A stretch of DNA of 64,000 bases, from NCBI GenBank assembly GCA_018333655.1, contig JAGXTJ010000010.1, positions 39,280 to 103,279 of the forward strand, read 5' to 3'. The position numbers were made by a program, and so were the translations under genes. Origin of the DNA: Bacillota bacterium. GTDB taxonomy: Bacteria > Bacillota > UBA994. The notes under the pieces are model-generated. The model saw only the letters and a list, made by a program, of their open reading frames with translations, ran no database searches and had not been told where the DNA came from. How positions within the stretch are numbered: the stretch's first letter is position 1; each line of letters begins with the position of its first letter. Shown piece by piece: positions 4,507 to 38,541 of the stretch.

Positions 4507-6482
4507 ATACTGTGTTCAATCTAGTTTCGGACTTCCGTCCGACCGGCGATCAACCTGAGGCCATTGCCAGTCTGTGCCGAGGCCTTCGTGAAGGGGCTCG
4601 CGAACAGACTTTACTGGGGGTAACAGGCTCTGGCAAGACCTTTACGGTCGCCAATGTCATCGCGACAGTTAACCGACCTACCCTAGTGCTCGCCCACAAC
4701 AAAACTCTAGCCGCCCAGTTGTGCGGCGAATTCCGCGAGTTCTTTCCGCATAATGCGGTGGAGTACTTCGTCAGTTACTACGATTACTACCAGCCAGAGG
4801 CTTACATCCCGCGTACAGATACCTATATCGAAAAGGATGCCCAAATTAATGAAGAGATAGACAAGCTTCGGCATTCGGCCACTTCGGCCTTGCTGGAGAG
4901 ACGTGATGTGATCATTGTGGCCAGTGTTTCCTGCATCTATGGTCTTGGTAGCCCAGAGGAATACGCCGAAAATGCCGTTTCGCTCCGCGTGGGCATGCAG
5001 AGGGAGCGCAATGACCTCCTCAGGCGCTTAGTGGCGATGCAGTACGCGCGTAATGACATCGCCTTTGAGAGGGGTACCTTTAGAGTGCGGGGGGATAGCG
5101 TGGAAATTATTCCCGCGGCCCAAATGGAGCGAGCCCTGCGCATAGAATTTTTTGGCTCGGAAATTGAGCGTATTACGGAGATAGACACCTTGACAGGTGA
5201 GATTTTGGGGCGACGCAACCATGTCTCTATCTTCCCCGCTTCCCACTTTGTCACGAGTAATGACAAGTTGCAGTTAGCCATTTTGCGCATTGAGAATGAA
5301 CTACAGGCCAGGCTCGCTGAGTTTCGCGCGCGTGACCAAGTTCTTGAGGCCCAGCGTCTTGAGCAGAGGTGTCGCTACGATTTAGAGATGATGCGCGAAA
5401 TTGGCTTTTGTTCCGGCATCGAAAACTACTCCCGCCATTTAGAGGGCCGAGAGGTAGGCACTCCCCCGTACACCTTGCTCGACTACTTTCCGCAGGACTT
5501 TCTCCTGGTGGTCGATGAATCCCATGTGACCCTGCCCCAAGTGCGCGGCATGTATGCCGGGGATCGCTCGCGCAAGACGGTGCTCGTGGAACACGGCTTC
5601 CGCCTTCCTTCGGCTATGGATAACCGTCCTTTGACTTTCGCGGAGTTTAATGGTCGCTTCGGGCAAGCGATATATGTCTCTGCCACTCCCGCCCCCTACG
5701 AGCTAGGGCAGAGCAGCCAAGTAGTAGAGCAGATCATTCGCCCGACCGGGCTCATCGACCCCGAGATTTCGGTGCGGCCTACGCGCGGACAGATTGATGA
5801 CTTGTATGGTGAGATCCGTAGCCGCATCGAGGCCGGCGAACGTATTTTAGTAACTACGCTTACAAAGCGCATGGCCGAAGACCTTACCGACTATTATAAA
5901 GAGATGGGACTTAAGGTGCGCTACTTACATTCAGACATTGAGACGCTCGAGCGCATGAGCATTCTGCGTGCCTTGCGCCTAGGAGAGTTCGATATATTAG
6001 TGGGGATCAACTTGCTGCGCGAAGGGCTCGACCTACCGGAGGTCTCCTTGGTGGCCATCCTAGATGCTGATAAAGAAGGCTTCTTGCGTTCTACCTCGTC
6101 ACTTATTCAAACTATCGGCCGGGCAGCTCGCAATGCCCATGGGCGTGTAATTATGTACGCCGACAAGGTAACAGACTCCATGCAGCGTGCTATCGAGGAG
6201 ACGAACCGACGCCGTGAACGGCAAGTGGTCTACAACAGTCAGAACAATATAGTGCCCACGAGTATTATCAAGAAGGTCCACGAGGTCATCGAGGCCACTT
6301 TGGCCATAGATATGAAAGAGGATGGTAAAGGGGGGCGCGGCTTCCAGGCGTTATCAGTCGGCGACAAGGCTCGAGTCCTCAAGCAGGTGGAGACAGAAAT
6401 GAAAACGGCAGCCAAGGCACTGCAATTTGAAAGGGCGGCCGAGCTTAGGGACTTACTGATCGAACTAAAGGCTAAATCGTAA
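4494..6482 (+). CDS. uvrB: Excinuclease ABC subunit B (UvrB)
   Basis: N-terminal [17 protein letters not shown], helicase motif [13 protein letters not shown] box (VVDESHVT), and the C-terminal UvrB/UvrC interaction motif (FERAAELRD). GTG start at 4494, or at 4512 after AGGTGA; the start is uncertain by a few codons. Confidence 0.95.
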
Positions 6483-9901: not shown

Positions 9902-11717
9902 GGACAAGCTAAAGCTCGTGCCTGCCCTCCCTGGGGTCTACCTGATGAAGGATAACGACGGCAGGGTGCTCTACGTCGGCAAAGCTAGGGTGCTTAAACA
10001 TAGGCTACGTAGCTACTTTCAGGCTGGCGCCAGTTATGAGCCGAAAGTAGCGGCCATGCTCGAAAAGACAGTGGACTTTGAGTACATCATCACCGATACT
10101 GAGCGCGAAGCCTTGGTCTTAGAGAGCAATCTTATCAAAGAGATGCGCCCCCATTACAACATTCGCATTAAAGACGACAAGCACTACCCTTACTTTAGGC
10201 TGTCAGTGCAGGACCCCTACCCTCGCCTGTCGATTGTGCGCCGTGTGGTTAATGACAAGGCGCGTTACTTCGGCCCCTACCCGCAAGTTAGCGTGGTCAG
10301 AGACATGTTTAAGCTCTTGAAGCGTATCATCCCCCTTATGACTTGCGACCGCGACGTAGCATATGGACATGTGAGCGGTAAAGTATGCCTTAACTACCAC
10401 CTTAAACAATGCCTGGGCGTCTGCACAGGCGAGGTTAGCGAGGCAGAGTACCGCAACTTAGTGAAGGAAGTGGAGATGCTCCTCGAAGGTAGGCACAAGC
10501 CCCTAGTGGAGAGTTTAACGAAGCAAATGGAACAAGCCGCCGCAGAGCTTAACTTTGAACGTGCTGCAACTCTGCGCGACCAAGTGCAGGCCATCGAAAG
10601 TCTGGCCGAGAAGCAAAAGTTTGATGCGGCTAAGCATGTCGAACGCGACATAGTGGGCTTAGTTGCTAGCTTAGAGGAAGCCTGTGCGACCATTTTTCAT
10701 ATGAGGGAAGGCAAGGTTATTGGGCGGGAGACCGTCTTTTTAGCGGGCAGTCTCGAGCAGAGCAGGGCAGAGGTACTGGCTGCCTTTCTCGCACAGTATT
10801 ATGCGGCCTCTCCTGTCGTTCCCAAAGAAATTATCCTCGCCACCGCGCCAGCCGAGCAAGAGATGTTAGAAGAAGTGCTTAGCAGGCAGAAGGGCGCTAA
10901 AGTGCTCTTAGCAGTGCCTAAACGTGGAGCCAACAAGGCCATGGTCGAGCTAGCAGAGCGTAACGCGGCGCAGAATCTCGCCGAGAGATGGGCTCGAGGG
11001 CCTGGGCAAGCAGAGCTAGCCAAGAAAGGCTTGTCCGAATTGGCACATCTCTTGGCCTTGCCAGCCCTCCCACAGCGGATAGAATGCTACGACATCTCAC
11101 ATATTCAAGGGACGCAGGCTGTTGGTTCCATGGTGGTGTTTCACGAAGGCCGGCCGGCGCGCTCGCAATATCGTCGCTTTAGGATCAAGTGGGTGGTGGG
11201 GCAAAACGACTACGCCTCTCTGCACGAGGTCTTGACACGGCGACTTACAGCCTTTCGCCAGGGCCAGAGCAAATTCGCGCCTTTGCCTGACCTTATGATT
11301 ATCGACGGGGGCCGGGGGCAACTGAACGCCGCCCTAGACGCGCTCAGGCAGGAAGAATACCCCGACATTCCCATAGTTGCTCTTGCCAAAGCGGAAGAAG
11401 AAGTATTTGCCCCCGACCGTGAGCGACCGATCATCCTTGCTCCCCACACGCAGGGGCGGTACCTTCTGCAGAGGGTTAGAGACGAGGCGCATCGTTTTGC
11501 CCTAGCCTACCACCAACAATTACGCCGCGATGCCCAGCTGGCCTCACGGCTAGAAGAGTGCCCAGGCATCGGGTCCCGTAGGCGCGTCGCGCTACTTAAG
11601 CACTTCGGCAATTTCGCCGCCGTCCTGCGAGCCTCGGTGGATGAGCTGGCCGCTGTAGAGGGCCTTAGTCGGGCCTTAGCTCTCCGCCTTTGGGAATTTT
11701 TACACTCACCAGACTAG
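9891..11717 (+). CDS. uvrC: Excinuclease ABC subunit C (UvrC)
   Basis: GIY-YIG N-terminus ([18 protein letters not shown]...YFQ), UvrBC interaction motif (FERAATLRD), and a C-terminal RNase H-like plus (HhH)2 region. TTG start after a GGGAGG RBS. It overlaps the uvrA stop. Confidence 0.93.
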
Positions 11718-12545: not shown

Positions 12546-13467
12546 GGAGAGGGCCGCACTAACCAATCTTTGGGAAGCAGCAGAGCGCCGCACCAATGTT
12601 TTGCAGGCTCACCCTCATCTGGCCGCCCTCGAAGACGAGGTTTCCCTCGCTCTGCGCCTCTTTGCTGCGGGACAAGGCGATGATCAAGCAGTCGCCAGCG
12701 CCCGGGACAAGCGTTCTCAATACCTTAGGGAGCACGGCCTGCCACTCGATTATGCCGAACCCCGTTGGTCGTGCGCAGATTGTCAAGATGAAAGCTATGT
12801 GGGGGGCAAGCCCTGTCACTGCCGCCAGCAGGCCGAGCTCGCGCACCTACTCGGTAATTCAGGTTTGCCCCCTAAGCTACGCACACAGACTTTCGCGCGT
12901 TTTGACTTGAGTTGGTACTCTGGCAGCATGATGACCCCCCTTGGTATCTCCGAGAGGCATTGCGCCAGTTATGCCCTTAACACTTGCCAGAAGTTTGTGG
13001 CTTCGGTTATGGAGGGGCAGGAGCGCAGCGGCCTATTTATCTCGGGCGAACCTGGACTGGGTAAGACCTTCTTGCTCAGCTCTATCTGTAATAGTTTACT
13101 AGCGGCCCGAGTGCCGACCCTGTATGTTGTCTTTTGTGATCTCATTGCGGCCATCAAAGACACCTTTAATGCCGAAAGTAGCGGTACCACCGAGTCGCGT
13201 ATTATGACAGCGGCGCGTGAGGCCGACGTGCTGCTTCTCGATGACTTAGGAGCTGAACAAGTAACCGAGTTTGTCACCAACAGACTATTTGACATCGTCA
13301 ACTATCGCTGCAATCATCAAAAACCTTTGGTGGTGTCGTCAAATCTAAAGGTGTCGGAGATTGGGCGCCTATATGGGGAACGAATTGCCTCTCGTTTGTG
13401 GGAAATGTGTGAGGTCGTAGCGCTCTACGGTGAGGATATACGAATACAGAAGAAGCGGCAGGGATAA
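12535..13467 (+). CDS. dnaI: Primosomal helicase loader DnaI (DnaC/IstB-like AAA+ ATPase with N-terminal zinc-binding domain)
   Basis: N-terminal Cys cluster (CADCQDESYVGGKPCHCRQ), Walker A GEPGLGKTF, Walker B LLLDDLG. At 310 aa it matches DnaI size. Its start overlaps the upstream stop (ATGGCAACTAA). Confidence 0.8.
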   Translation: MATKERAALTNLWEAAERRTNVLQAHPHLAALEDEVSLALRLFAAGQGDDQAVASARDKRSQYLREHGLPLDYAEPRWSCADCQDESYVGGKPCHCRQQAELAHLLGNSGLPPKLRTQTFARFDLSWYSGSMMTPLGISERHCASYALNTCQKFVASVMEGQERSGLFISGEPGLGKTFLLSSICNSLLAARVPTLYVVFCDLIAAIKDTFNAESSGTTESRIMTAAREADVLLLDDLGAEQVTEFVTNRLFDIVNYRCNHQKPLVVSSNLKVSEIGRLYGERIASRLWEMCEVVALYGEDIRIQKKRQG

Positions 13468-13505
13468 CCTGCCGCTTAAATATATTAATATTAGCCTTTT
13501 AATTT

Positions 13506-13534
13506 TGACCTTTCTCCTTATTTATATTACAATA
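13506..13534 (+). promoter_or_regulatory. Promoter TTGACC-17-TACAAT upstream of the DUF2089 gene
   Basis: Read directly in the AT-rich stretch 13470-13560. Confidence 0.45.
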
Positions 13535-13566
13535 AGAACTATAAATCATGCAAAGGAGGCCACTCT

Positions 13567-13951
13567 TGTGCGTAAGCAAGCCCCCGGCCTGTGTCCGGTC
13601 TGCGGTGAAAAATTCCATGTTGCCAAGCTTGACTGCCATCGGTGCTCTACAAGCCTGACGGGAGATTTTGAGCCCTGTCGTTTTTGCGCCCTAACCAGCG
13701 AACAAAAGACTTTTCTCGAGGTCTTTGTCAAGAGCCGCGGAAATATTAAAGAAGTAGAGAGAGAGCTTGGCATTTCTTACCCCACAGTGCGTAGCCGCCT
13801 CGACAATGTACTCGATGCCTTAGGGTTTCGCGTCGATGAGGCTACGATGCCCGTGGATCTTCCTTCGCGGCGCAAAGAAGTTCTTGACGCGCTCTCCCGT
13901 GGGGAAGTCACGGCCGATGAGGCAGTGAAGCTTCTGCGTGCGCTTACCTAG
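13567..13951 (+). CDS. DUF2089-type protein: zinc ribbon + HTH + C-terminal SHOCT-like motif
   Basis: GTG 13567 after AAGGAGG. CPVCGEK...CHRCS...CRFC is a zinc ribbon. LGISYPTVRSRLDNVLDALG is an HTH. C-terminal ...EVLDALSRGEVTADEAVKLLRAL. The ORF track start at 13430 translates AT-rich promoter DNA and is unlikely to be real. Confidence 0.7.
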
Positions 13952-14283
13952 CGCCATGCGACTACCTAATTTTTTCTTATTATGCATTATCCGCCCAGCA
14001 GGATGGCGCTGGCCCTTGGTTTTTCCCCTGCCCATATTCTTGGTCGACGACGTGCTCGAAGCAGGGGAGGCCATGCTGTGGCTGCTCGGACTTAAGTTTG
14101 GGCGGCACTTGCCCCTAGGCCGGTTGTTCTGGTCTTCACAGTCCTTTCTCCGCGGTGGCTTGCCTAAGGTGCGCGAGGCGTGGCGCAAAGTGCGCAGGTC
14201 TGGTTCCTTCACACTGCTTGAAACCGCGCAGCATTCAGGCGTGCAAGTGACAATTAAATTTATTTAGCAACTGACCTCCTTAA

Positions 14284-14300
14284 TATTGATTTTATCAATA
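14284..14300. promoter_or_regulatory. Perfect 7-bp inverted repeat TATTGAT-ttt-ATCAATA (operator-like); a second half-site copy ATATTGATTTTAT at 14304-14316 and a third partial copy AATATTG at 14384-14390
   Basis: Read directly. The repeats flank the consensus promoter at 14329-14357. Confidence 0.5.
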
Positions 14301-14328
14301 CTCATATTGATTTTATTAACATTGTGCT

Positions 14329-14357
14329 TGACATAGTTGCGCGCGCCGATTATAATT
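14329..14357 (+). promoter_or_regulatory. Consensus sigma-A promoter TTGACA-17-TATAAT driving the yvl-like operon
   Basis: TTGACA tagttgcgcgcgccgat TATAAT read directly. Confidence 0.6.
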
Positions 14358-14408
14358 TGCTCAATAGCACTATTAAGGCTCTTAATATTGTGAAGGAGGA
14401 AGTAGGCA

Positions 14409-14762
14409 ATGGAAAGCGAAAAGTTGCAGATTCTGAAAATGGTGCAAGAGGGTAAAATTAGGGCAGAAGAGGCCGAGAAACTATTACAGGCCCTCGAACA
14501 AAAGGGTGCATCAGCACTGCCCAGTACAAACGCCAAATGGCTGCGTGTTCGCGTGCAAGAGGCCGACAAGAAAATAGTGAATATCAACTTGCCCATGGCC
14601 CTAGTCGATGTAGCCGTAAACATGGGGCTAAAATTTGCCTCTCCAGAACAGCTAGACGGCATCGACGTCCCCGCCCTGATGCAGGCCATTAAACAGGGTG
14701 CCAATGGCAAGATACTAGAAGTCCAAAGTAAGGAAGCCACGGTGGAGATTACAGTGGAGTAG
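14409..14762 (+). CDS. Small protein with N-terminal SHOCT-like motif (YvlB/LiaG N-terminal-like), function unknown
   Basis: KLQILKMVQEGKIRAEEAEKLLQAL has the same (E/D)G.I.A(D/E)EA.KLL.AL motif as the C-terminus of the preceding DUF2089 protein. RBS GAAGGAGGAAG. Confidence 0.6.
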   Translation: MESEKLQILKMVQEGKIRAEEAEKLLQALEQKGASALPSTNAKWLRVRVQEADKKIVNINLPMALVDVAVNMGLKFASPEQLDGIDVPALMQAIKQGANGKILEVQSKEATVEITVE

Positions 14763-14807
14763 GAAAAAATGCTATAATGAAAGCAAGTTAGGGAAGGGGG
14801 AACTACT

Positions 14808-15002
14808 ATGGAAAGGCGCCTGTATCGTTCGCTCTCGAACCGCATGATAGGAGGCATATGTGGAGGACTGGCAGAGTATGTAAATGCTGATCCGACCATT
14901 ATCCGGCTATTGATGCTTCTCTTCGTTCTCTTTGGAGGAGCGGGATTTCTCTTCTACTTGGCGGCGTGGGTGATCATCCCAGAGCGGTCGAGCAGTGCGT
15001 AA
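14808..15002 (+). CDS. PspC-domain membrane protein
   Basis: RSLSNRMIGGICGGLAEYVNADPTIIRLLMLLFVLFGG is a canonical PspC domain. Confidence 0.8.
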   Translation: MERRLYRSLSNRMIGGICGGLAEYVNADPTIIRLLMLLFVLFGGAGFLFYLAAWVIIPERSSSA

Positions 15003-15333
15003 ACCCTTTCTTTGGAAAGTCGCCCTCAATGCTCTCGGACTGTGGATAGTGACAGAGTTTTTAGTGGCGGGTATGCGCGTTGAAAATGTACCGGCCCTTC
15101 TCGTGGCCGCACTCGTCTTAGGCCTTATCAATGCTACCGTACGGCCGATTCTAATCTTGCTCTCGTTGCCCTTCAATGTATTAACTCTAGGTCTACTAAC
15201 TCTAGTGATCAATGGTGCCATGCTCTCTCTTGCGGCCTCCATTGTTCCGGGGTTTTACATCGCCACCTTCTGGACAGCAGTGTGGGGTGCGATATTGCTC
15301 AGCATCATTAGTGCGGTGCTCGACAGTTTTTAA
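14995..15333 (+). CDS. Phage-holin-family-4 / DUF360 (YvlD-like) membrane protein
   Basis: 112-aa protein with 3-4 TM segments. Its position after the PspC-domain gene is as in Bacillus yvlABCD. GTG start overlaps the PspC stop. Confidence 0.65.
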   Translation: MRKPFLWKVALNALGLWIVTEFLVAGMRVENVPALLVAALVLGLINATVRPILILLSLPFNVLTLGLLTLVINGAMLSLAASIVPGFYIATFWTAVWGAILLSIISAVLDSF

Positions 15334-15360
15334 AGAAATTTTGCCTTGTTCTTAAAATGC

Positions 15361-15387
15361 AGTTGGCCCTTGGCCAACTTTTTTTCT
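15361..15387 (+). terminator. Intrinsic terminator (AGTTGGCC-ctt-GGCCAACT + T7)
   Basis: 8-bp perfect stem followed by a run of seven T, read directly. Confidence 0.7.
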
Positions 15388-15461
15388 GCTTGTATTTAGC
15401 TAGTCGTAATTTTGCGATATACTAATTGTGTCTTCGGGGCGTAGCAGAGGGGGAGTAGCAA

Positions 15462-17225
15462 GTGGGAACAATGGGACGCCTCTTCAAGCAGGTTAAACCC
15501 TACTATGGGCGCATTGCTTGGTCAGTACTGATGATGTTTATTGGCACAGCCCTGGTCGCAGCGCAACCCATGCTTATTCAGCAAGCCATTGACCGCGCCT
15601 TTAGGGGTGGGGAATGGGGGCTCTTGGTTCCCTTTTCGCTCGCGATCCTCCTAGCTACGGTACTTCGCGCAGGTATTAACTACCTCGAGCGCATTTCAAT
15701 GGAGTGGGTTGCGCAGCGTACCATTTACGATTTGCGTAACGAAGTCTACCGGCACTTGCAGTCCATGTCCTTTAGTTTTTATGACAAAGCCGAGACAGGG
15801 CAGCTCATGTCGCGTGCCACGGCTGACGTGGAGACACTGCGGCGCTTTTTAAGTTTTGGCGTGCTACGTCTTGTGGGTAGCAGTCTGACCTTTGTCGTGG
15901 TCTTTGCCCTGCTTTTTTCCATGCATTGGCGTTTGACGCTAGTGGCCATGCTCACCATGCCCCTCTTGATCTTGATCGTCTGGCAGTTTGCTACTAAGGT
16001 CAGGCCGCGCTACCTGGTCATTCAGCAATACCTAGGTGAAATCACTAGTGTCCTGCAAGAAGTCATTGCGGGCGTACGTGTGGTGCGTGCTTATGCGCAA
16101 GAAGAGAGGGAAATAGAGCGCTTTCGCCGCAAAAATTGGCAGTATCTGGACTTAAATATTAGCACCGTGCGCCTCTGGGCTTTTTATTTCCCCCTGATGT
16201 CCCTGTTGGGGGGCTTAGGCAGCACGCTCATCTTGTGGTACGGTGGCATTCTTGTCGTGCGTGGCGACTTAACTATCGGACAGATGGTGGCCTTTCAGAC
16301 CTTGCTGATGCAATTAATCATGCCTATACGCATGATTGGCTGGTTAGTGAACATGGCGACGCAGGCAGTAGCCGCAGGGCAGAGGGTTTATGAAATACTT
16401 GACACCGCCCCAGATGTACGCGAGAAGCCGCAAGCCCTAGAGCTCGCGTGCACCAAGGGGCATGTGCGCTTTGAGAATGTCAGTTTTAGCTATGACGGCA
16501 AAACAGAAGTACTGGATGGACTGAACATCGACGCCCCCGCAGGGCAGACAGTGGCCTTGCTGGGCAGTACTGGCTCTGGCAAGAGCTCCGTCATCAACTT
16601 AATACCTAGGTTTTACGACATTACGGCAGGCAGAATAACTATAGATGGTATCGACATACGCGACGTTACACTGAAGAGTCTGCGGGCCAATATCGGCATT
16701 GTGTTGCAGGAGACGTTTTTGTTTTCGGCCACAATTAAGGAGAACATTGCTTATGGCAAGGCGGGCGCGCAGGAGGCCGAAATTATCGCTGCGGCGCAGG
16801 CGGCGCGCATTCACGATTTTATTGTTAGTCTGCCAGAAGGCTATGATACTCTGCTCGGAGAGCGCGGCATAGGTTTATCCGGTGGGCAGAAACAAAGAGT
16901 CGCCATTGCTCGCGCCCTGCTTATGAATCCTCGTATCCTGATTCTCGATGAAGCCACCTCGAGCGTAGACACCGAGACAGAGTTCCTTATTCAACAGGCC
17001 TTGCACGAGTTAATGCAAAATCGTACGACCTTTGTGGTGGCACAAAGGCTGTCAACCGTAAAAGAAGCCCAACAGATTATTGTCCTTAAAGATGGCAAAG
17101 TGCAGCAAAAGGGCACGCACGACTCCCTGCTCCGCGAGGAAGGTGTCTACCGAGAAATCTATGACTTGCAGTTTAGGCCGCAGGAGGAACTAGGCATCAG
17201 CTCTAGGGAGGGGGAAAATAAATGA
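15462..17225 (+). CDS. ABC exporter, fused permease + ATPase (half-transporter 1 of a heterodimer)
   Basis: Six N-terminal TM helices, then Walker A GSTGSGKSS, signature LSGGQKQRV, Walker B ILILDEATS. Confidence 0.9.
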   Translation: MGTMGRLFKQVKPYYGRIAWSVLMMFIGTALVAAQPMLIQQAIDRAFRGGEWGLLVPFSLAILLATVLRAGINYLERISMEWVAQRTIYDLRNEVYRHLQSMSFSFYDKAETGQLMSRATADVETLRRFLSFGVLRLVGSSLTFVVVFALLFSMHWRLTLVAMLTMPLLILIVWQFATKVRPRYLVIQQYLGEITSVLQEVIAGVRVVRAYAQEEREIERFRRKNWQYLDLNISTVRLWAFYFPLMSLLGGLGSTLILWYGGILVVRGDLTIGQMVAFQTLLMQLIMPIRMIGWLVNMATQAVAAGQRVYEILDTAPDVREKPQALELACTKGHVRFENVSFSYDGKTEVLDGLNIDAPAGQTVALLGSTGSGKSSVINLIPRFYDITAGRITIDGIDIRDVTLKSLRANIGIVLQETFLFSATIKENIAYGKAGAQEAEIIAAAQAARIHDFIVSLPEGYDTLLGERGIGLSGGQKQRVAIARALLMNPRILILDEATSSVDTETEFLIQQALHELMQNRTTFVVAQRLSTVKEAQQIIVLKDGKVQQKGTHDSLLREEGVYREIYDLQFRPQEELGISSREGENK

Positions 17226-19643: not shown

Positions 19644-19681
19644 AAAAAGGCTGGCCACATATTCGTGGTCAGCCTTTTTTG
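19644..19681. terminator. Bidirectional intrinsic terminator (GGCTGGCCAC / GTGGTCAGCC stem flanked by an A-run and a T-run)
   Basis: 10-bp stem with one G-U pair. AAAAA lies upstream and TTTTTT downstream. It sits between convergent genes. Confidence 0.75.
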
Positions 19682-19827
19682 GTGCGCGGGGGGTGTTTTG
19701 TCAACCTCCGCATACCGAACTGTACGCACGGTGGTGTGAAAGGGAGGGGGTTAGTCACCCCCTCCTGCTCGATCTATACTGTAGAGTTTGGGATTCGATC
19801 AGCATAAGTTAACTGGGCAACTTCAAA

Positions 19828-20196
19828 TCAGGTCTCCCTTTGTACGATGTAATCTGCTAGGGCCTTCTCAACCATGTCCATAAAATCTGAGCCAGCGCCA
19901 AAGTCTTCTCCTTCTTTGGACCATCGTTTATGTCCTCCAGTAGACACATGGATTGTAGTAACACCGAGCAAGTTGCTGATAGTTATAGCTAATGTTATGA
20001 AGCTGCCTACTCGAATGTAGTACTTGGTGAGTATCAGGGAGATAATCGTGCCTGACGAGCTATTAATTCGATAATTGTCCAAGAGAATACCTGGATCCTT
20101 GCCAATTCGGAAGAGTGCTTTTTCTTGAGTGATGGTCTCTATGATTGCTGACGCTGCCTGTTCGGGCGACAGTGATACTGTGTAGTCCCTAATCAT
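19828..20196 (-). CDS. Small protein of unknown function (122 aa from ATG 20196), second gene of a low-GC cassette
   Basis: Its ATG overlaps the upstream stop as ATGA (plus-strand tcat at 20193-20196). No signal peptide. The sequence is rich in predicted beta strands. The ORF track's longer form starting at 20259 would overlap the upstream gene by 67 nt. Confidence 0.55.
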   Translation of the reverse strand: MIRDYTVSLSPEQAASAIIETITQEKALFRIGKDPGILLDNYRINSSSGTIISLILTKYYIRVGSFITLAITISNLLGVTTIHVSTGGHKRWSKEGEDFGAGSDFMDMVEKALADYIVQRET

Positions 20197-20999
20197 GTAG
20201 CTTGTATGCCGTAGCGGCTGTAAGTTAGTGGATAGTAGGTTTGGTTTTCGGTCTCCCATCCTGCCGGACAGTAGTTCTGATGAAGTAGGAAAGCCCGATG
20301 AGATAACTCCCCGTCATTGTAGAAGTTTGGGGATGGAGCTATGCGGTCGGGAATGGTAGTCGGGTTATCAACATACTGCAATAAGGGAGGGTTAATACCT
20401 TGAGGATTCGCCACAGTGGCCCTGTCGTACCTAAAATAATCATATCTATAGGCGGTATAGTATGTTTCCCAGTTGCCACCCAAGGATGACTGAATTTGCA
20501 CGGTCTTAAGGTAAGTATTATGTGAGTAGCCTATTTCAATTCCTACTGTAGATGTCGGTTGAGGACTAAAGCCCATAAAAACACTAAAAAGGTAGTTGTG
20601 AACAGTAGTTTGTATGGCCAGTTGTGCGACCCAGATGGCACTGTTTTTGATTAACTGGTATTCACCATTCCAGCGACCCCAGTATATTGCCGAACCAGGA
20701 ATTGTAGTCTCAAGTATTCTCATGCCATATATTAGCCTGCCACTTAGGGGAGCATGCGTGTCATTTTTTTCCAGCAGGCCATCCAGTGTAATAGGTACTG
20801 TGAATGTTTCGCTGGAAAGCACTCGTGTGGTAATAGGCTCAGTGTTTGCAATCATCTCGACATAATCGTACAACAAGTCTACGTTTGCTGGATGCGCAGC
20901 CCAAATTCTGGAGCGATGAGTATTTGCCTCAGCGAACCCTAGAGGCGCAAAGAGACACGACAGCGCTAGTAATCCGGCCAAAATTCTCTGCCAATACAT
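20193..20999 (-). CDS. Secreted (possibly lipo-) protein, Tyr/Trp/Asn/Thr-rich, unknown function; first gene of a low-GC cassette
   Basis: Strong RBS AAAGGAGG 7 nt before the ATG. N-terminal MYWQRILAGLLALSCLFAPLGFAEA is a signal peptide with a possible lipobox cysteine. The mature part is rich in Y, W, N, T and G (e.g. YYTAYRYDYFRYDRATV). GC is visibly lower than in flanking genes. Confidence 0.6.
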   Translation of the reverse strand: MYWQRILAGLLALSCLFAPLGFAEANTHRSRIWAAHPANVDLLYDYVEMIANTEPITTRVLSSETFTVPITLDGLLEKNDTHAPLSGRLIYGMRILETTIPGSAIYWGRWNGEYQLIKNSAIWVAQLAIQTTVHNYLFSVFMGFSPQPTSTVGIEIGYSHNTYLKTVQIQSSLGGNWETYYTAYRYDYFRYDRATVANPQGINPPLLQYVDNPTTIPDRIAPSPNFYNDGELSHRAFLLHQNYCPAGWETENQTYYPLTYSRYGIQAT

Positions 21000-21128
21000 G
21001 TAACTACCTCCTTTTATCTAGGGATCAAATTGTATGTGCCACTGTTTTGCATGTCAACTGTACATATACACTGTTTTTTGCAGGACGGAGTTGCTCGGGG
21101 TAGGTATCCTTCTCGATTGGATTGGGAA

Positions 21129-23153
21129 CTAGTTCGCGTTTTGCGGCGGAGTTAGACCAGAGTTCTCTAGACATGACTTCTGTAGGCGCGCCTTCTGTAG
21201 AAAGTAGACGAGAGCAAGTGAAGTAATGCCGATAAAGTCAGTCAGGAGGCCTGGGTCAATCAGGGCAAAGGCCGAAATGAAAAGCAAGGCGCGCTCTGTT
21301 AGACGGGTGTCTGTCAGAAAGAAATTCTGTACGCCTCCTGCTAGGGCCACTATGCCGATGCAGGCGGTGACGATATTGTGTACGGCCTCTATCCACGTGA
21401 CATCAATGAGTAGTAGCGCCGGCGAGAGGGTGAACATGTAGGGAATCAAGAAGCCTGCCAGGGCTAACTTTAGGGCCAAGACGCCCGTTTTCATGGCGTT
21501 GCCACCCGCTATGCCAGCCCCGGCATAGGCTGCTAAAGCCACGGGGGGAGTGATGTCGGCGACGACGCCGAAGTAGAGGATAAAGAGATGGGCGGCAATT
21601 AAAGGAACTCCGAGTGCTACCAGTGCTGGGGCCGCCATCGTGGCTAGAACAATGTACTTCGCGGTGGTCGGTAGCCCCATCCCTAGGATCAGTGAGGCAA
21701 TCATGGTCATGAACAGAGTCAAGAGCATGTTTCCATCGCCAACAGATAAGACCAAGGAGGAGAACTTGAGCCCGAGCCCCGTCAAGGTGACCACGCCAAC
21801 GATGATTCCCGCACAAGCACAGGCCGAGGCAACGCCGACTGCGCTGCGCGCCCCATTCTCAAGTGCTTTTAAGATGTCACGGATGCCGAGAGGGCGCTCG
21901 CGCTTGATGTAAGCTCCAATCACAGCCACGACGACGGCAATGTTGATGCTGTAGAACGCCGCCCTAAAGGGCGAGCGGCCCGCCATAAGAAAATACAAGA
22001 TGGCGATGAGGGGTATGAGCAAGTGCCATCCCCGTTTGAGGGTGGCTCGAGGGTCTGGCAGCAGAGCTTTTGGTAGGCCAACGAGGCCTTTTTTTAGTGC
22101 TTCGAAGTGAACCATGGTGGCTACCGCTAGATAGTAGAGAATGGCGGGTATGGTCGCCGCCTTGACAATCTGCAGGTAGGGGATGCCGGTCATCTCGGAC
22201 ATTATAAAGGCGGCTGCGCCCATGACGGGGGGCATAATCTGCCCGCCCGTAGAGGCTGCGGCCTCTACAGCTCCGGCGAATTCAGGGCTGTAGCCTACTC
22301 TCTTCATGGCAGGAATAGTAAAAGCCCCTGTAGTGACGGTATTAGCTACCGACGAGCCAGAGATAGAGCCCATAAGGCCAGAGGCCAGTACAGCGGTCTT
22401 GGCAGGCCCGCCCCGCATATGGCCAGTTGCGGCAAAGGCAAGGTCAATGAAAAATTGCCCCACGCCGGTTTTTTCTAGGAAGGCTCCATAGAGGATAAAG
22501 AGAAAGACGAAGGTGGAGCTAACGCCGAGTGGTGTGCCGTAGATGCCCTCCGTCGTAAGAAAGATGTGCTCGACAATGCTTCTAATGCTGTAGCCGCGAT
22601 GTCCGAGAGGGCTCGGAAAGTAGGGCCCTAGGTTGGCGTAAACCAAGAAGACGACTGCCACGATAGGTAGCTCGGGGCCGATGGTGCGGCGGGTTATCTC
22701 GAGGACGAGCGCAATAGCCAAGATGCCCACCGCTACGTCGAGCGGTGTGGGGATGCCAGCGCGAAGCAGTAGAGCATGGTAATTCAGCAGAATGTAGGCG
22801 CCCACCCCAAGTCCAGCTAGAGCCAAGAGCACATCATACCAGGGCAGACGGAAACGACTCAGCTTCTTTGACGCAGGCCACAAGAGAAAAGCCAAGACCA
22901 TAACAAAAATTAAGTGCACAGCACGCTGCTGCATCGCCAGCAAGATGCCAAACCCCGCCGTGTAGTAATGAAATAGCGACATGGCAATGGCAATCGCGGC
23001 TACGAGCAAGCCGACAAAGCCGGCCAATTTGCGGTAGTTAGACTCGCTGTCGAACTTTTCTAAGAGTGCTTCTACATCCACATTTTCCGCTGCGACTACG
23101 CTGGTGGGCTTGTCAGTGCTACTCAAGGTAGTATCCTCCTTAATCGAAGCCAA
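21129..23153 (-). CDS. TRAP transporter fused permease subunit (TAXI-associated DctQ/DctM fusion)
   Basis: 674-aa protein with many TM helices. It is co-oriented with and follows the TAXI receptor and DUF1850 genes. Confidence 0.85.
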   Translation of the reverse strand: MASIKEDTTLSSTDKPTSVVAAENVDVEALLEKFDSESNYRKLAGFVGLLVAAIAIAMSLFHYYTAGFGILLAMQQRAVHLIFVMVLAFLLWPASKKLSRFRLPWYDVLLALAGLGVGAYILLNYHALLLRAGIPTPLDVAVGILAIALVLEITRRTIGPELPIVAVVFLVYANLGPYFPSPLGHRGYSIRSIVEHIFLTTEGIYGTPLGVSSTFVFLFILYGAFLEKTGVGQFFIDLAFAATGHMRGGPAKTAVLASGLMGSISGSSVANTVTTGAFTIPAMKRVGYSPEFAGAVEAAASTGGQIMPPVMGAAAFIMSEMTGIPYLQIVKAATIPAILYYLAVATMVHFEALKKGLVGLPKALLPDPRATLKRGWHLLIPLIAILYFLMAGRSPFRAAFYSINIAVVVAVIGAYIKRERPLGIRDILKALENGARSAVGVASACACAGIIVGVVTLTGLGLKFSSLVLSVGDGNMLLTLFMTMIASLILGMGLPTTAKYIVLATMAAPALVALGVPLIAAHLFILYFGVVADITPPVALAAYAGAGIAGGNAMKTGVLALKLALAGFLIPYMFTLSPALLLIDVTWIEAVHNIVTACIGIVALAGGVQNFFLTDTRLTERALLFISAFALIDPGLLTDFIGITSLALVYFLQKARLQKSCLENSGLTPPQNAN

Positions 23154-29850: not shown

Positions 29851-29886
29851 CCCATGATGCTATGCTTGCCTTGGAGGTGGGTAGAT

Positions 29887-30669
29887 ATGCCAAGACAGGC
29901 GAGAAGGGTTAATCCACAGGGATACTATCACGTGATGATGCGGGGCAATAATCGGCACCCCATTTTCGGTAGGCCCGATGATAAGGCGTATTATCTCAAG
30001 GTTTTGCAGGAGCATTGTTGCGAAGACACCTTAGCCATTGTGGCTTACTGCCTTATGGACAATCACGTGCACCTAGTTTTGCATGCCGCAAGTGATGCTT
30101 TTAGCAGAGCGTTGAGCCGCACCAATCTTAAATTCGCTCTGCGTTACAACACACGACAGAAGCATTGTGGGCATGTGTTCCAAGACAGATTTAGGAGCGA
30201 GATCATCGATGAGCCTCGCTACTTGCTGGCGGCCATCAGGTATGTGCACAATAATCCCGTCAAGGCAAAGCTCGTCAATGCCCCTAGGGACTACAGGTGG
30301 AGCAGCTATCAAGAGTACGTGAGCGAAAGCACAATCATAGATAAAGAGTTAATGGTAAGCGTGCTGGCAGAATATTTTAATGGGGATGTCAGCAAGTTCA
30401 TCGCTTTTCATCGGCAACATGACGAGCATGAGTTTTTGGAGGACAGAGTCGACTTAGAGTTGCAGCGCCTAGAGCGTGGTCAGCGTGTTCTTTTAGCGTT
30501 TTGTGAGTCATATGGTATCGAGAATCCTAAGGAGGCCTATCGCAATCCCGAATTGTTGGCGACTTTGACGCATTATCTGATTGAGAACAGCCGATTAAGT
30601 CATAGACAGGTAGCGGAGTTGCTAGGCGTTAGCAGTAGCCGAATACACAGAGTAGCTTCGCGACAATGA
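29887..30669 (+). CDS. IS200/IS605-like Y1 (HUH) transposase domain fused to a C-terminal DnaA domain-IV-like HTH
   Basis: N-terminal GYYHVMMRGNNRHPIF, the HUH motif DNHVHLVL, and the catalytic Tyr region RYVHNNPVKAKLV (PF01797-like). C-terminal ...LIENSRLSHRQVAELLGVSSSRIHRVASR resembles DnaA C-terminal DNA-binding helices. RBS GGAGGTGG. Confidence 0.75.
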   Translation: MPRQARRVNPQGYYHVMMRGNNRHPIFGRPDDKAYYLKVLQEHCCEDTLAIVAYCLMDNHVHLVLHAASDAFSRALSRTNLKFALRYNTRQKHCGHVFQDRFRSEIIDEPRYLLAAIRYVHNNPVKAKLVNAPRDYRWSSYQEYVSESTIIDKELMVSVLAEYFNGDVSKFIAFHRQHDEHEFLEDRVDLELQRLERGQRVLLAFCESYGIENPKEAYRNPELLATLTHYLIENSRLSHRQVAELLGVSSSRIHRVASRQ

Positions 30670-37935: not shown

Positions 37936-38541
37936 TTAACGCCACCCAGCCAAACCAGTTATGAGTAAAATATCCAGAGGTGCACCTGCTGCGGCGCCTG
38001 CACCCCCGCCTACAGCGCTTCCAACCAACTTCGCAGTGGCTGACGGGTTGACTCCCGCTAATATTGGAATATATTTTGCACCAAGCTTCACTCCTAGAGC
38101 AACAAGGGCCGCAGTGATAATGGGATTTACATCCGCTACGAGTAGCACTTCCCCATTAGTCACCAACACTCTAAACTCATCAAAGGGTACTACAATTGCG
38201 CCTCCAGCTGTTGGCACAACAAACCCATCCGCATGTTTTTTAAGCGGGACCATCTGCCCATCAACAGAGATAGTGTCACTCAGTACAATTGGAATGCCGA
38301 CAAGTCCTTGCCTAGTTTCTGCAACAAGTACGATCTGATCATTGATAAACCTGACTTCGGCATCTATGTGTAACTGTTTTTGATGTCCTTGCCCCTGCCT
38401 TTGCGCGTTACCTCTGTCGTTTCCGCGACTAGCGACAACTGGAGTAGCAAATGCTGATGCGATGAGTATGGCCGTCAGAAAAACAGAAGTGATCCGAAAC
38501 ATCGATTTCATTGAGAACCCCACCTTCCTTAAGGTCGCCAT
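37936..38541 (-). CDS. Membrane-anchored protein of unknown function (201 aa)
   Basis: N-terminal signal anchor, a low-complexity RGNDRGNAQRQGQGHQKQ stretch, and a C-terminal hydrophobic/Gly-Ala-rich region. Confidence 0.5.
   Translation of the reverse strand: MATLRKVGFSMKSMFRITSVFLTAILIASAFATPVVASRGNDRGNAQRQGQGHQKQLHIDAEVRFINDQIVLVAETRQGLVGIPIVLSDTISVDGQMVPLKKHADGFVVPTAGGAIVVPFDEFRVLVTNGEVLLVADVNPIITAALVALGVKLGAKYIPILAGVNPSATAKLVGSAVGGGAGAAAGAPLDILLITGLAGWR

Follow-up and report, generated by a model that had tools for sequence, protein, structure and literature searches.

Two minus-strand open reading frames (ORFs), ORF1 and ORF2, were analyzed within a 64,000-nucleotide stretch of Bacillota bacterium DNA (assembly GCA_018333655.1, contig JAGXTJ010000010.1, positions 39,280 to 103,279; hereafter the window). 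ORF1 encodes a predicted exported protein of an undescribed orphan family, and ORF2 a predicted cytoplasmic protein that is probably a divergent member of the DUF6054 family (PF19524). The reading favored here, at a probability of roughly 0.35, is that ORF2/DUF6054 forms an autonomous core to which ORF1 is a rare and dispensable Sec-exported add-on, the pair residing in a mobile cassette that brings its own promoter.

Structure and transfer of the cassette

ORF1 (20193-20999, minus strand) was called as a gene for a 268 amino acid (aa) precursor, and ORF2 (19828-20196, minus strand) encodes 122 aa. The stop codon of the former and the start codon of the latter are joined by an ATGA overlap, confirming the two-gene arrangement proposed in an earlier reading of the sequence alone (the original prediction). 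A strong ribosome-binding site, AAAGGAGG (21007-21014, minus strand), was read directly from the sequence 7 nucleotides (nt) 5′ of the ORF1 ATG. A sigma-70-type promoter, TTGACA-17 nt-TACAAT (21029-21057, minus strand), which was not part of the original prediction, matches 11 of 12 consensus positions and by our reading is of the vegetative sigma-A type rather than the sporulation type. Both genes would be transcribed together from this promoter. The position of the -10 hexamer gives an estimated 5′ untranslated region of ~20-30 nt, which is too short to hold a riboswitch, and an Rfam scan for RNA elements returned chance-level matches only.

The extent of the transferable unit (19789-21058, minus strand), comprising promoter, ribosome-binding site, ORF1, ORF2 and a 3′ tail of ~40 nt, was defined by DNA homology to a 20.8-kb metagenomic locus (L001; ENA ERZ21838770 bin.20 NODE_2). 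This segment aligns to L001 positions 9942-11212 at 85.4% DNA identity over 1271 bp and is the sole similarity between the 64-kb window and L001, the flanks being unrelated. Similarity sets in at the -35 hexamer and tails off 40-60 nt past the ORF2 stop codon; in L001 the promoter is kept as TTGACA...TATAAT, and the DNA 5′ of it is unrelated. The encoded proteins are 79% (ORF1) and 83% (ORF2) identical between the two loci. Ratios of nonsynonymous to synonymous substitution rates (dN/dS) are 0.33 for ORF1 and 0.27 for ORF2 with dS ~0.3 for both, indicating purifying selection and joint divergence of the two genes. Both are real genes.

The GC content of ORF1 (45.7%) and ORF2 (44.7%) lies ~3.5 and 3.9 standard deviations (SD), respectively, below that of the 50 other ORFs in the window (54.0 ± 2.4%), and GC content at third codon positions (GC3; 45.0% and 47.2%) lies 3.0 and 2.5 SD below the value for 50 window ORFs (58.7 ± 4.6%). 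When GC content was computed along the window the two 1300-bp bins over the pair, at 45-46%, were the lowest, in agreement with the AT-richer stretch noted previously, although the surroundings are at 53-57% rather than the 58-60% then estimated. The cassette is of 44-46% GC at both loci, compared with 53.5% for the window and 47-50% for the L001 host DNA. Other DUF6054 genes mostly match the GC content of their own locus. On these figures the window cassette appears to have been imported fairly recently, from a donor of lower GC content. In L001 the cassette lies 306 nt downstream of a complete Lamassu defence system, LmuA/LmuC/LmuB (L001 6216-9695; PADLOC E values 1e-26, 2e-21 and 2e-97, respectively), in an island of 40-42% GC with Mor, RadC and DUF960 genes, and is followed by an extracytoplasmic function sigma/anti-sigma pair. 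Horizontal acquisition of the cassette, part of the original prediction, is well supported by the isolated DNA match, the unrelated flanks and the low GC content.

Direct or inverted repeats, whether insertion sequence (IS)-like or att-like, do not bracket 19789-21058, and no integrase or transposase gene lies at the cassette borders. The nearest is an IS200/IS605 Y1 transposase gene ~9 kb away (29854-30669, mapped from L006 39-821), itself of below-average GC content (48.3%) and with no obvious tie to the cassette. A phage or plasmid origin was sought by tblastn against INPHARED and PLSDB, with no match for either ORF, and IMG/VR scans likewise matched neither; the only viral link is a weak match to PHROG 25410, a family of unknown function (E 2.4e-6). 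Neither protein matched an anti-phage defence protein in PADLOC. The cassette is present at the same place in all conspecific contigs, from about 10 samples. A scan with the neighboring TRAP permease for syntenic relatives among GTDB representatives identified only UBA2296 (permease 71% identical), the contig of which ends 52 nt past the permease gene and short of the cassette site. Metagenome-assembled genomes (MAGs) carrying the cassette are labeled by NCBI as Dethiobacter sp. or Firmicutes bacterium. The 90%-identity cluster of the ORF1 protein P0001 bears three labels, Firmicutes bacterium, Dethiobacter sp. and Thermaerobacter sp. (MBS4054359.1), and one or more of these MAGs is probably mislabeled.

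The cassette is bordered by a TAXI-TRAP operon on one side and a DUF2140/ABC-exporter block on the other. The fused TAXI-TRAP permease gene upstream of ORF1 ends at 21129, and a consensus scan found no terminator-like site between it and ORF1. The same scan missed the bidirectional intrinsic terminator at 19644-19679 (both strands), which was found through inverted-repeat and folding analysis and bears out the terminator previously assigned here. It is an inverted repeat with 15-nt arms, 93% complementary and flanked by A and T runs, situated ~150 nt 3′ of ORF2 and common to the convergent DUF2140 gene; the fold z-score of the 3′ region is -5.4. Between cassette and terminator lies a GC-rich hairpin with a perfect 9-bp stem, GGAGGGGGU-GACUA-ACCCCCUCC (DNA: GGAGGGGGT-GACTA-ACCCCCTCC; 19743-19765, minus strand). 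This hairpin is unique in the window and outside the L001 homology, and could represent an extra terminator or an element of the insertion junction.

One-sided linkage of ORF1 and DUF6054 genes

Wherever the downstream side of an ORF1 gene is visible (four of four lineages: the window, L001, L005 and L017) a DUF6054 gene follows; at L017 the last 27 ORF1 residues are on record, 69 nt 5′ of the DUF6054 gene. A search of 1.84 billion representative proteins turned up no ORF1 homologue in a different setting. The converse does not hold, as DUF6054 genes occur where no intact ORF1 is present, at a minimum of seven loci (L011, L013, L015, L018, L019, L111 and L112). The homologues without ORF1 at L011/L012, L013, L015, L018, L019 and L112 are at 42-55% identity, and the neighbors of ORF1-less genes are varied, including genes for membrane proteins, an ABC transporter, a NUDIX protein and a HepT-like RNase. 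In none of the ORF1-less copies examined was the DUF6054 gene adjoined by a gene for a secreted protein. At L111 a 36-aa ORF (635-740), preceded by a GGAGGGGG ribosome-binding site of its own, consists of nothing but a signal peptide and 13 further residues; the signal peptide shares 64% identity with that of the ORF1 homologue P0021. The ORF stops 3 nt short of the DUF6054 gene and seems to be what a deletion has left of ORF1.

A neighbor-joining tree of 16 DUF6054 proteins placed the ORF1-linked copies in three clades, interspersed with ORF1-less copies. The simplest history for this distribution is that ORF1 and a DUF6054 gene were paired early on and that ORF1 was then lost more than once. 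Uncorrected ratios of nonsynonymous to synonymous differences (pN/pS) were 0.26-0.40 for pairs that include ORF1-less DUF6054 genes, among them the sister pairs L005/L019 and L017/L111, equal to those of linked pairs. Because ORF1-less copies retain this pN/pS and an invariant motif described below, the function of ORF2 would be independent of ORF1.

The distance between the two genes varies from a 4-nt overlap to ~70 nt across the window, L001, L005 and L017. The ATGA overlap is lineage-specific and depends on a single base, the window having TAC where L001 has TAA (window 20196-20216, L001 10783-10803); this change adds six codons to the window ORF1, whereas the L001 ORF1 stops 14 nt before ORF2. 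Other lineages have spacers of 14-70 nt, and at L017 ORF2 is preceded by a GGAG of its own. Divergence between linked pairs can be deep, the window and L005 proteins being 44-45% (ORF2) and ~58% (ORF1) identical.

Two of the ORF1-less loci have further features. At L112 (1-703) a gene for a HepT-like HEPN ribonuclease, a toxin (Pfam E 9e-25), ends 1 nt before the gene for the DUF6054 homologue P0011, with which it may form an operon; the expected MntA antitoxin would fall off the contig. At L015, 1.4 kb without a called gene (4567-6001) separates glmS from the DUF6054 gene. Read in several frames, this stretch yields recurring Pro/Arg-rich units (RGWFRSLVRPP...), a sign that the DNA itself may hold tandem or dispersed repeats.

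Properties of the two proteins

Residues 1-23 of ORF1 (20931-20999, minus strand) constitute a Sec signal peptide with predicted cleavage after GFA, as indicated by hydropathy and by an AXA-like site conserved in all homologues. No other segment exceeds a Kyte-Doolittle hydropathy of 1.6 over 19 residues, and the cleavage site, GFA|E in the window protein, takes the forms GSA, ALA and ALA elsewhere in the family. A second transmembrane segment considered at residues 120-144 was rejected, since hydropathy there stays under 1.0 in the window protein and does not exceed 1.57 in P0003. The original prediction of a signal peptide therefore stands, whereas its suggestion of a possible lipoprotein cysteine at position 15 does not: in a manual check against the pattern [LVI][ASTVI][GAS]C, ALS-C15 is a poor fit, P0003 has no Cys, and position -1 is occupied by L in P0021 and L111. 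Only 9 residues separate R5 from Cys15, and the AXA-like site lies ~8 residues beyond the latter. ORF1 is accordingly read as a putative signal peptidase I substrate and not as a lipoprotein. The mature protein of ~245 aa is acidic (21 Asp and Glu against 15 Lys and Arg). Its aromatic character, remarked on before, is borne out by comparison with the other window proteins (Tyr 8.2 vs 2.7%, Trp 2.6 vs 0.8%, Asn 6.0 vs 2.9%, Thr 9.3 vs 5.2%); together these four residues make up 26% of ORF1, the top value in the window.

The ORF1 family is very small. A search of 5.8 billion clusters gave three full-length members, and an exhaustive HMMER profile search of the 1.84 billion representative proteins added only ORF1 fragments and two repeat proteins, giving about six lineages in that set. 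One of the repeat proteins, P0025, was rejected as a homologue: it is a TPR-repeat protein whose match to the YDxxRYD-rich segment of ORF1 is one of composition. P0024 likewise aligns to this segment through numerous short matches, judged from the alignments only. Further homologues in JGI metagenomes came only from the same organism. No ORF1 homologue matched Pfam even at E <= 10, peptidase hidden Markov models included, and the window ORF1 had no meaningful NCBIfam, PHROG or PADLOC match. A profile built from three sequences found nothing better than E ~2 in the PDB, and an AlphaFold2 model from the three-sequence alignment was unusable (predicted local distance difference test score, pLDDT, 30). 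The most conserved segment, SPNFxNxGxLSxRxxLLxxNYCPAGWExExxxYYPL (20226-20333, minus strand), holds the only conserved Cys, C244, and is present in every lineage with a recorded C-terminus (P0001-P0003, P0022, P0023 and the L017 fragment). A papain-like or other Cys-His hydrolase was considered and rejected, as no His is shared by all three full-length homologues. Common ancestry of ORF1 and ORF2 was likewise rejected (hhalign probability 0.1%). On these comparisons ORF1 belongs to an undescribed orphan family, as had been supposed when it was not assigned to a known one.

That supposition did not hold for ORF2, which matches PF19524 at 21.6 bits (E 1.9e-4; gathering score 27) over positions 32-110 of the 111-position model. 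All 16 members of its subfamily match PF19524 at E <= 1 (best 3.6e-8) and 9 of the 16 carry a precomputed PF19524 annotation, which points to ORF2 being a divergent DUF6054 member. We take DUF6054 to be an uncharacterized family of proteins of roughly 110-130 aa, and full-text literature searches for 'DUF6054' and 'PF19524' returned no paper. ORF2 resembles the family in size and in having no signal peptide, but its score below the gathering threshold would place it on a divergent branch, and the link to an upstream exoprotein gene is confined to part of this branch. The protein has neither an N-terminal hydrophobic segment nor a signal peptide, as predicted from the outset, although the beta-rich fold proposed with this gave way to a mixed alpha/beta one: an AlphaFold2 model of good quality (pLDDT 87, predicted template modeling score 0.81) is a beta-alpha-beta4-alpha-beta two-layer sandwich. 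Fold matches to this model were the KA1 domain (11.5), the BamC N-terminal domain (9.2), DUF302 (8.5-8.6), AdoMetDC (7.9) and SRPBCC/Bet v 1-type proteins (no figure given), all at 7-14% sequence identity. Foldseek searches with the model against the PDB and BFVD gave nothing at E <= 0.001, and an ORF2 profile against PDB chains gave no match below E ~1. The modeled fold is thus generic and carries no indication of function, and the remote-homology searches that had been proposed at the start place ORF2 in an uncharacterized family and ORF1 in none.

Across the 16 homologues a loop of ORF2, H83-x2-T86-G-G-H89-K...D98-x-G-A101 (19894-19950, minus strand), is invariant whether or not ORF1 is present, and the complete invariant polar set comprises D40, S65, H83, T86-G-G-H89-(K) and D98-x-G100-A101. 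In the model these residues cluster at the junction of strand 5 and helix 2, where they most likely form a ligand-binding, metal-binding or catalytic pocket. The motif H-x2-TGGHK...DxGA was present in no family or PDB match obtained here.

Elsewhere in the window, a 201-aa ORF (37936-38541, minus strand; 48.8% GC) has the lowest GC3 (41%) and is a further candidate for foreign origin. The second-lowest-GC stretch (13000-15600, 48-51%), upstream of two ABC exporter genes, contains small DUF2089, SHOCT-like, PspC and Phage_holin_4_2-like genes; a long ORF at 14264-14899 (minus strand) with a GC content of 0.35 at first codon positions is probably not a gene.

Competing explanations and significance

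Under the favored reading, a Dethiobacter lineage would have taken up a self-promoted two-gene cassette horizontally from a lower-GC Firmicute. ORF2 would be the core component, working alone in many genomes, with its invariant loop serving as a ligand or metal-binding or catalytic pocket. ORF1, translated from the same transcript, would be exported by Sec and cut by signal peptidase I to release a soluble, acidic, aromatic-rich protein of ~245 aa outside the cell, where, judging from its composition, it would most likely bind or cut an extracellular polymer. Its action would be tied to, yet not needed for, the role of ORF2 inside the cell. Several points weigh against this reading. Composition is the one source for the proposed action on a polymer, and ORF1 has no fold or family match to add to it. 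The ORF2 fold is generic, its nearest relatives being KA1, DUF302, BamC-N and SRPBCC-like, and the pocket is a putative one. A cytoplasmic ORF2 and an exported ORF1 would hardly meet except before export, which favors an inhibitor, and the occurrence of ORF1 only with ORF2, while ORF2 is also found as an orphan, is the classic toxin-immunity pattern. The number of informative ORF1 loci is about four.

The alternative that survives best, possible though doubtful, is that ORF1 is a secreted enzyme or toxin and ORF2 an intracellular guard or immunity protein that neutralizes it in the cytoplasm or on re-entry, lone ORF2 genes then being orphan immunity or inhibitor genes. Such an architecture is known from staphopain/staphostatin, SpeB/Spi and the Bacteroides Bfp/Bfi and Btp/Bti systems, in each of which a secreted cysteine protease is co-transcribed with a cytoplasmic inhibitor (PMC3462683). 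The cassette likewise has, behind one promoter, a gene for an exoprotein with a signal peptide and then a gene for a small protein without one, and at 122 aa ORF2 compares with partners of 116-138 aa in those systems (PMC3462683). Also in keeping with this explanation, the pair is mobile as a unit and lies in a defence/mobile island in L001, its distribution is rare and patchy, ORF1 is never found without ORF2 while ORF2 orphans exist, and at L112 the gene just before the DUF6054 gene encodes a HepT-like toxin.

Against this explanation, the papain-like motifs of the secreted cysteine proteases are missing from ORF1, which also lacks an invariant His and so a Cys-His dyad; nor was a toxin or hydrolase domain found in it. 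Staphostatins are 8-stranded beta-barrels, whereas ORF2 is modeled as a two-layer alpha/beta sandwich. Unlike protease inhibitors, ORF2 homologues persist under constraint without an exoprotein gene: a dedicated inhibitor would be expected to decay after loss of ORF1, yet the polar loop and pN/pS are maintained, and no secreted-protein gene stands beside the ORF1-less copies. This persistence argues against the dedicated neutralizer originally proposed but is compatible with orphan immunity. As an exoprotein with Sec as its only route and no dedicated delivery system, ORF1 would act outside the cell, where cytoplasmic immunity is of no use, and selection on both genes is plainly purifying (dN/dS 0.27-0.33), with no sign of diversification and with the ORF1 C-terminus as its most conserved part. 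The role of immunity partner first assigned to ORF2 is for these reasons not upheld.

Similar considerations apply to other secreted effectors. Barnase/barstar and SPN/IFS each combine a secreted RNase or NADase with an intracellular inhibitor, and orphan inhibitor homologues are widespread. The logic of a Sec-exported enzyme and a cytoplasmic neutralizer would be common to these and to the cassette, but no nuclease or NADase motif was recognized, and PDB profile searches gave no match below E ~1 for either protein. The resemblance of ORF2 to KA1 (Chk1/MARK/AMPK)/TBP-like, DUF302, BamC N-domain and SRPBCC proteins is one of fold only, from which function is not transferable. With polymorphic toxin systems (LXG/type VII secretion, contact-dependent inhibition, Rhs) the cassette shares a small partner gene directly downstream on the same strand. 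No trafficking domain was found in any ORF1 homologue by Pfam or NCBIfam, however, no dedicated secretion apparatus adjoins the pair, its neighbors being TAXI-TRAP, DUF2140 and ABC exporter genes, and in place of a variable C-terminal toxin domain ORF1 has its most conserved segment, with no toxin family match. The original view of a toxin or adhesin effector with its immunity protein thus met with no toxin, adhesin, trafficking or anchoring domain, and with no secretion apparatus nearby beyond Sec. A dedicated toxin-immunity or inhibitor relation between ORF1 and ORF2 is possible but unsupported. Its broadest form, in which the pair is a new family of Sec-exported toxin or enzyme with its neutralizer, DUF6054 as a whole an unrecognized and widespread immunity or inhibitor fold and stand-alone DUF6054 genes orphan immunity genes, is unlikely; were it true, orphan DUF6054 genes would be kept because ORF1 relatives or analogous effectors circulate in anaerobic Firmicute communities.

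It is distinctly unlikely that the linkage is without shared function, an orphan exoprotein gene having been inserted long ago 5′ of a DUF6054 gene and co-inherited through adjacency and a common promoter. The repeated loss of ORF1 without visible effect on ORF2 speaks in its favor, as do the otherwise unconserved neighborhoods of DUF6054 genes and a translational coupling that hangs on one base in one lineage and is replaced elsewhere by 14-70 nt spacers, with a separate GGAG at L017. Adjacency has nevertheless outlasted the deep divergence between the window and L005, in four lineages and with the same order and orientation, and ORF1 occurs in no other context in the representative set. That ORF1 is instead a structural or adhesive envelope protein (surface-layer, spore-surface or matrix), cross-linked or stacked through tyrosine and kept export-competent or modified as a precursor by ORF2, is improbable: its Tyr/Trp-rich sequence with YYTAYRYDYFRYDR-type motifs, its Sec signal peptide and a promoter and ribosome-binding site strong enough to suggest abundant expression would suit such a role, but it has no Pfam or NCBIfam domain and hence no recognizable SLH, LysM or other wall-binding domain, no LPXTG sortase motif was seen by eye (no dedicated motif search was made), the promoter is read as vegetative rather than sporulation type, ORF2 works without ORF1 in many genomes, and such extreme rarity is unusual in a structural envelope protein.

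The favored reading, of a self-sufficient DUF6054 protein with a dispensable exported companion, preserves part of the earlier claim that the locus is an undescribed accessory system: the ORF1 family is undescribed, ORF2 belongs to a catalogued one, and the toxin-immunity relation between them is unsupported. Pairing an exported protein with a small cytoplasmic one is a familiar design, realized here with unrelated proteins, and as one of many orphan gene pairs in MAGs the cassette is of modest importance. It does offer a compact and clear case of horizontal transfer, the unit moved being one promoter and two genes, with a recombination breakpoint at the -35 box. If the link between ORF1 and ORF2 is functional, ORF1 would add a new exoprotein fold from alkaliphilic, subsurface Firmicutes, and the loci that bear it would be the only genetic handle so far on the role of DUF6054.

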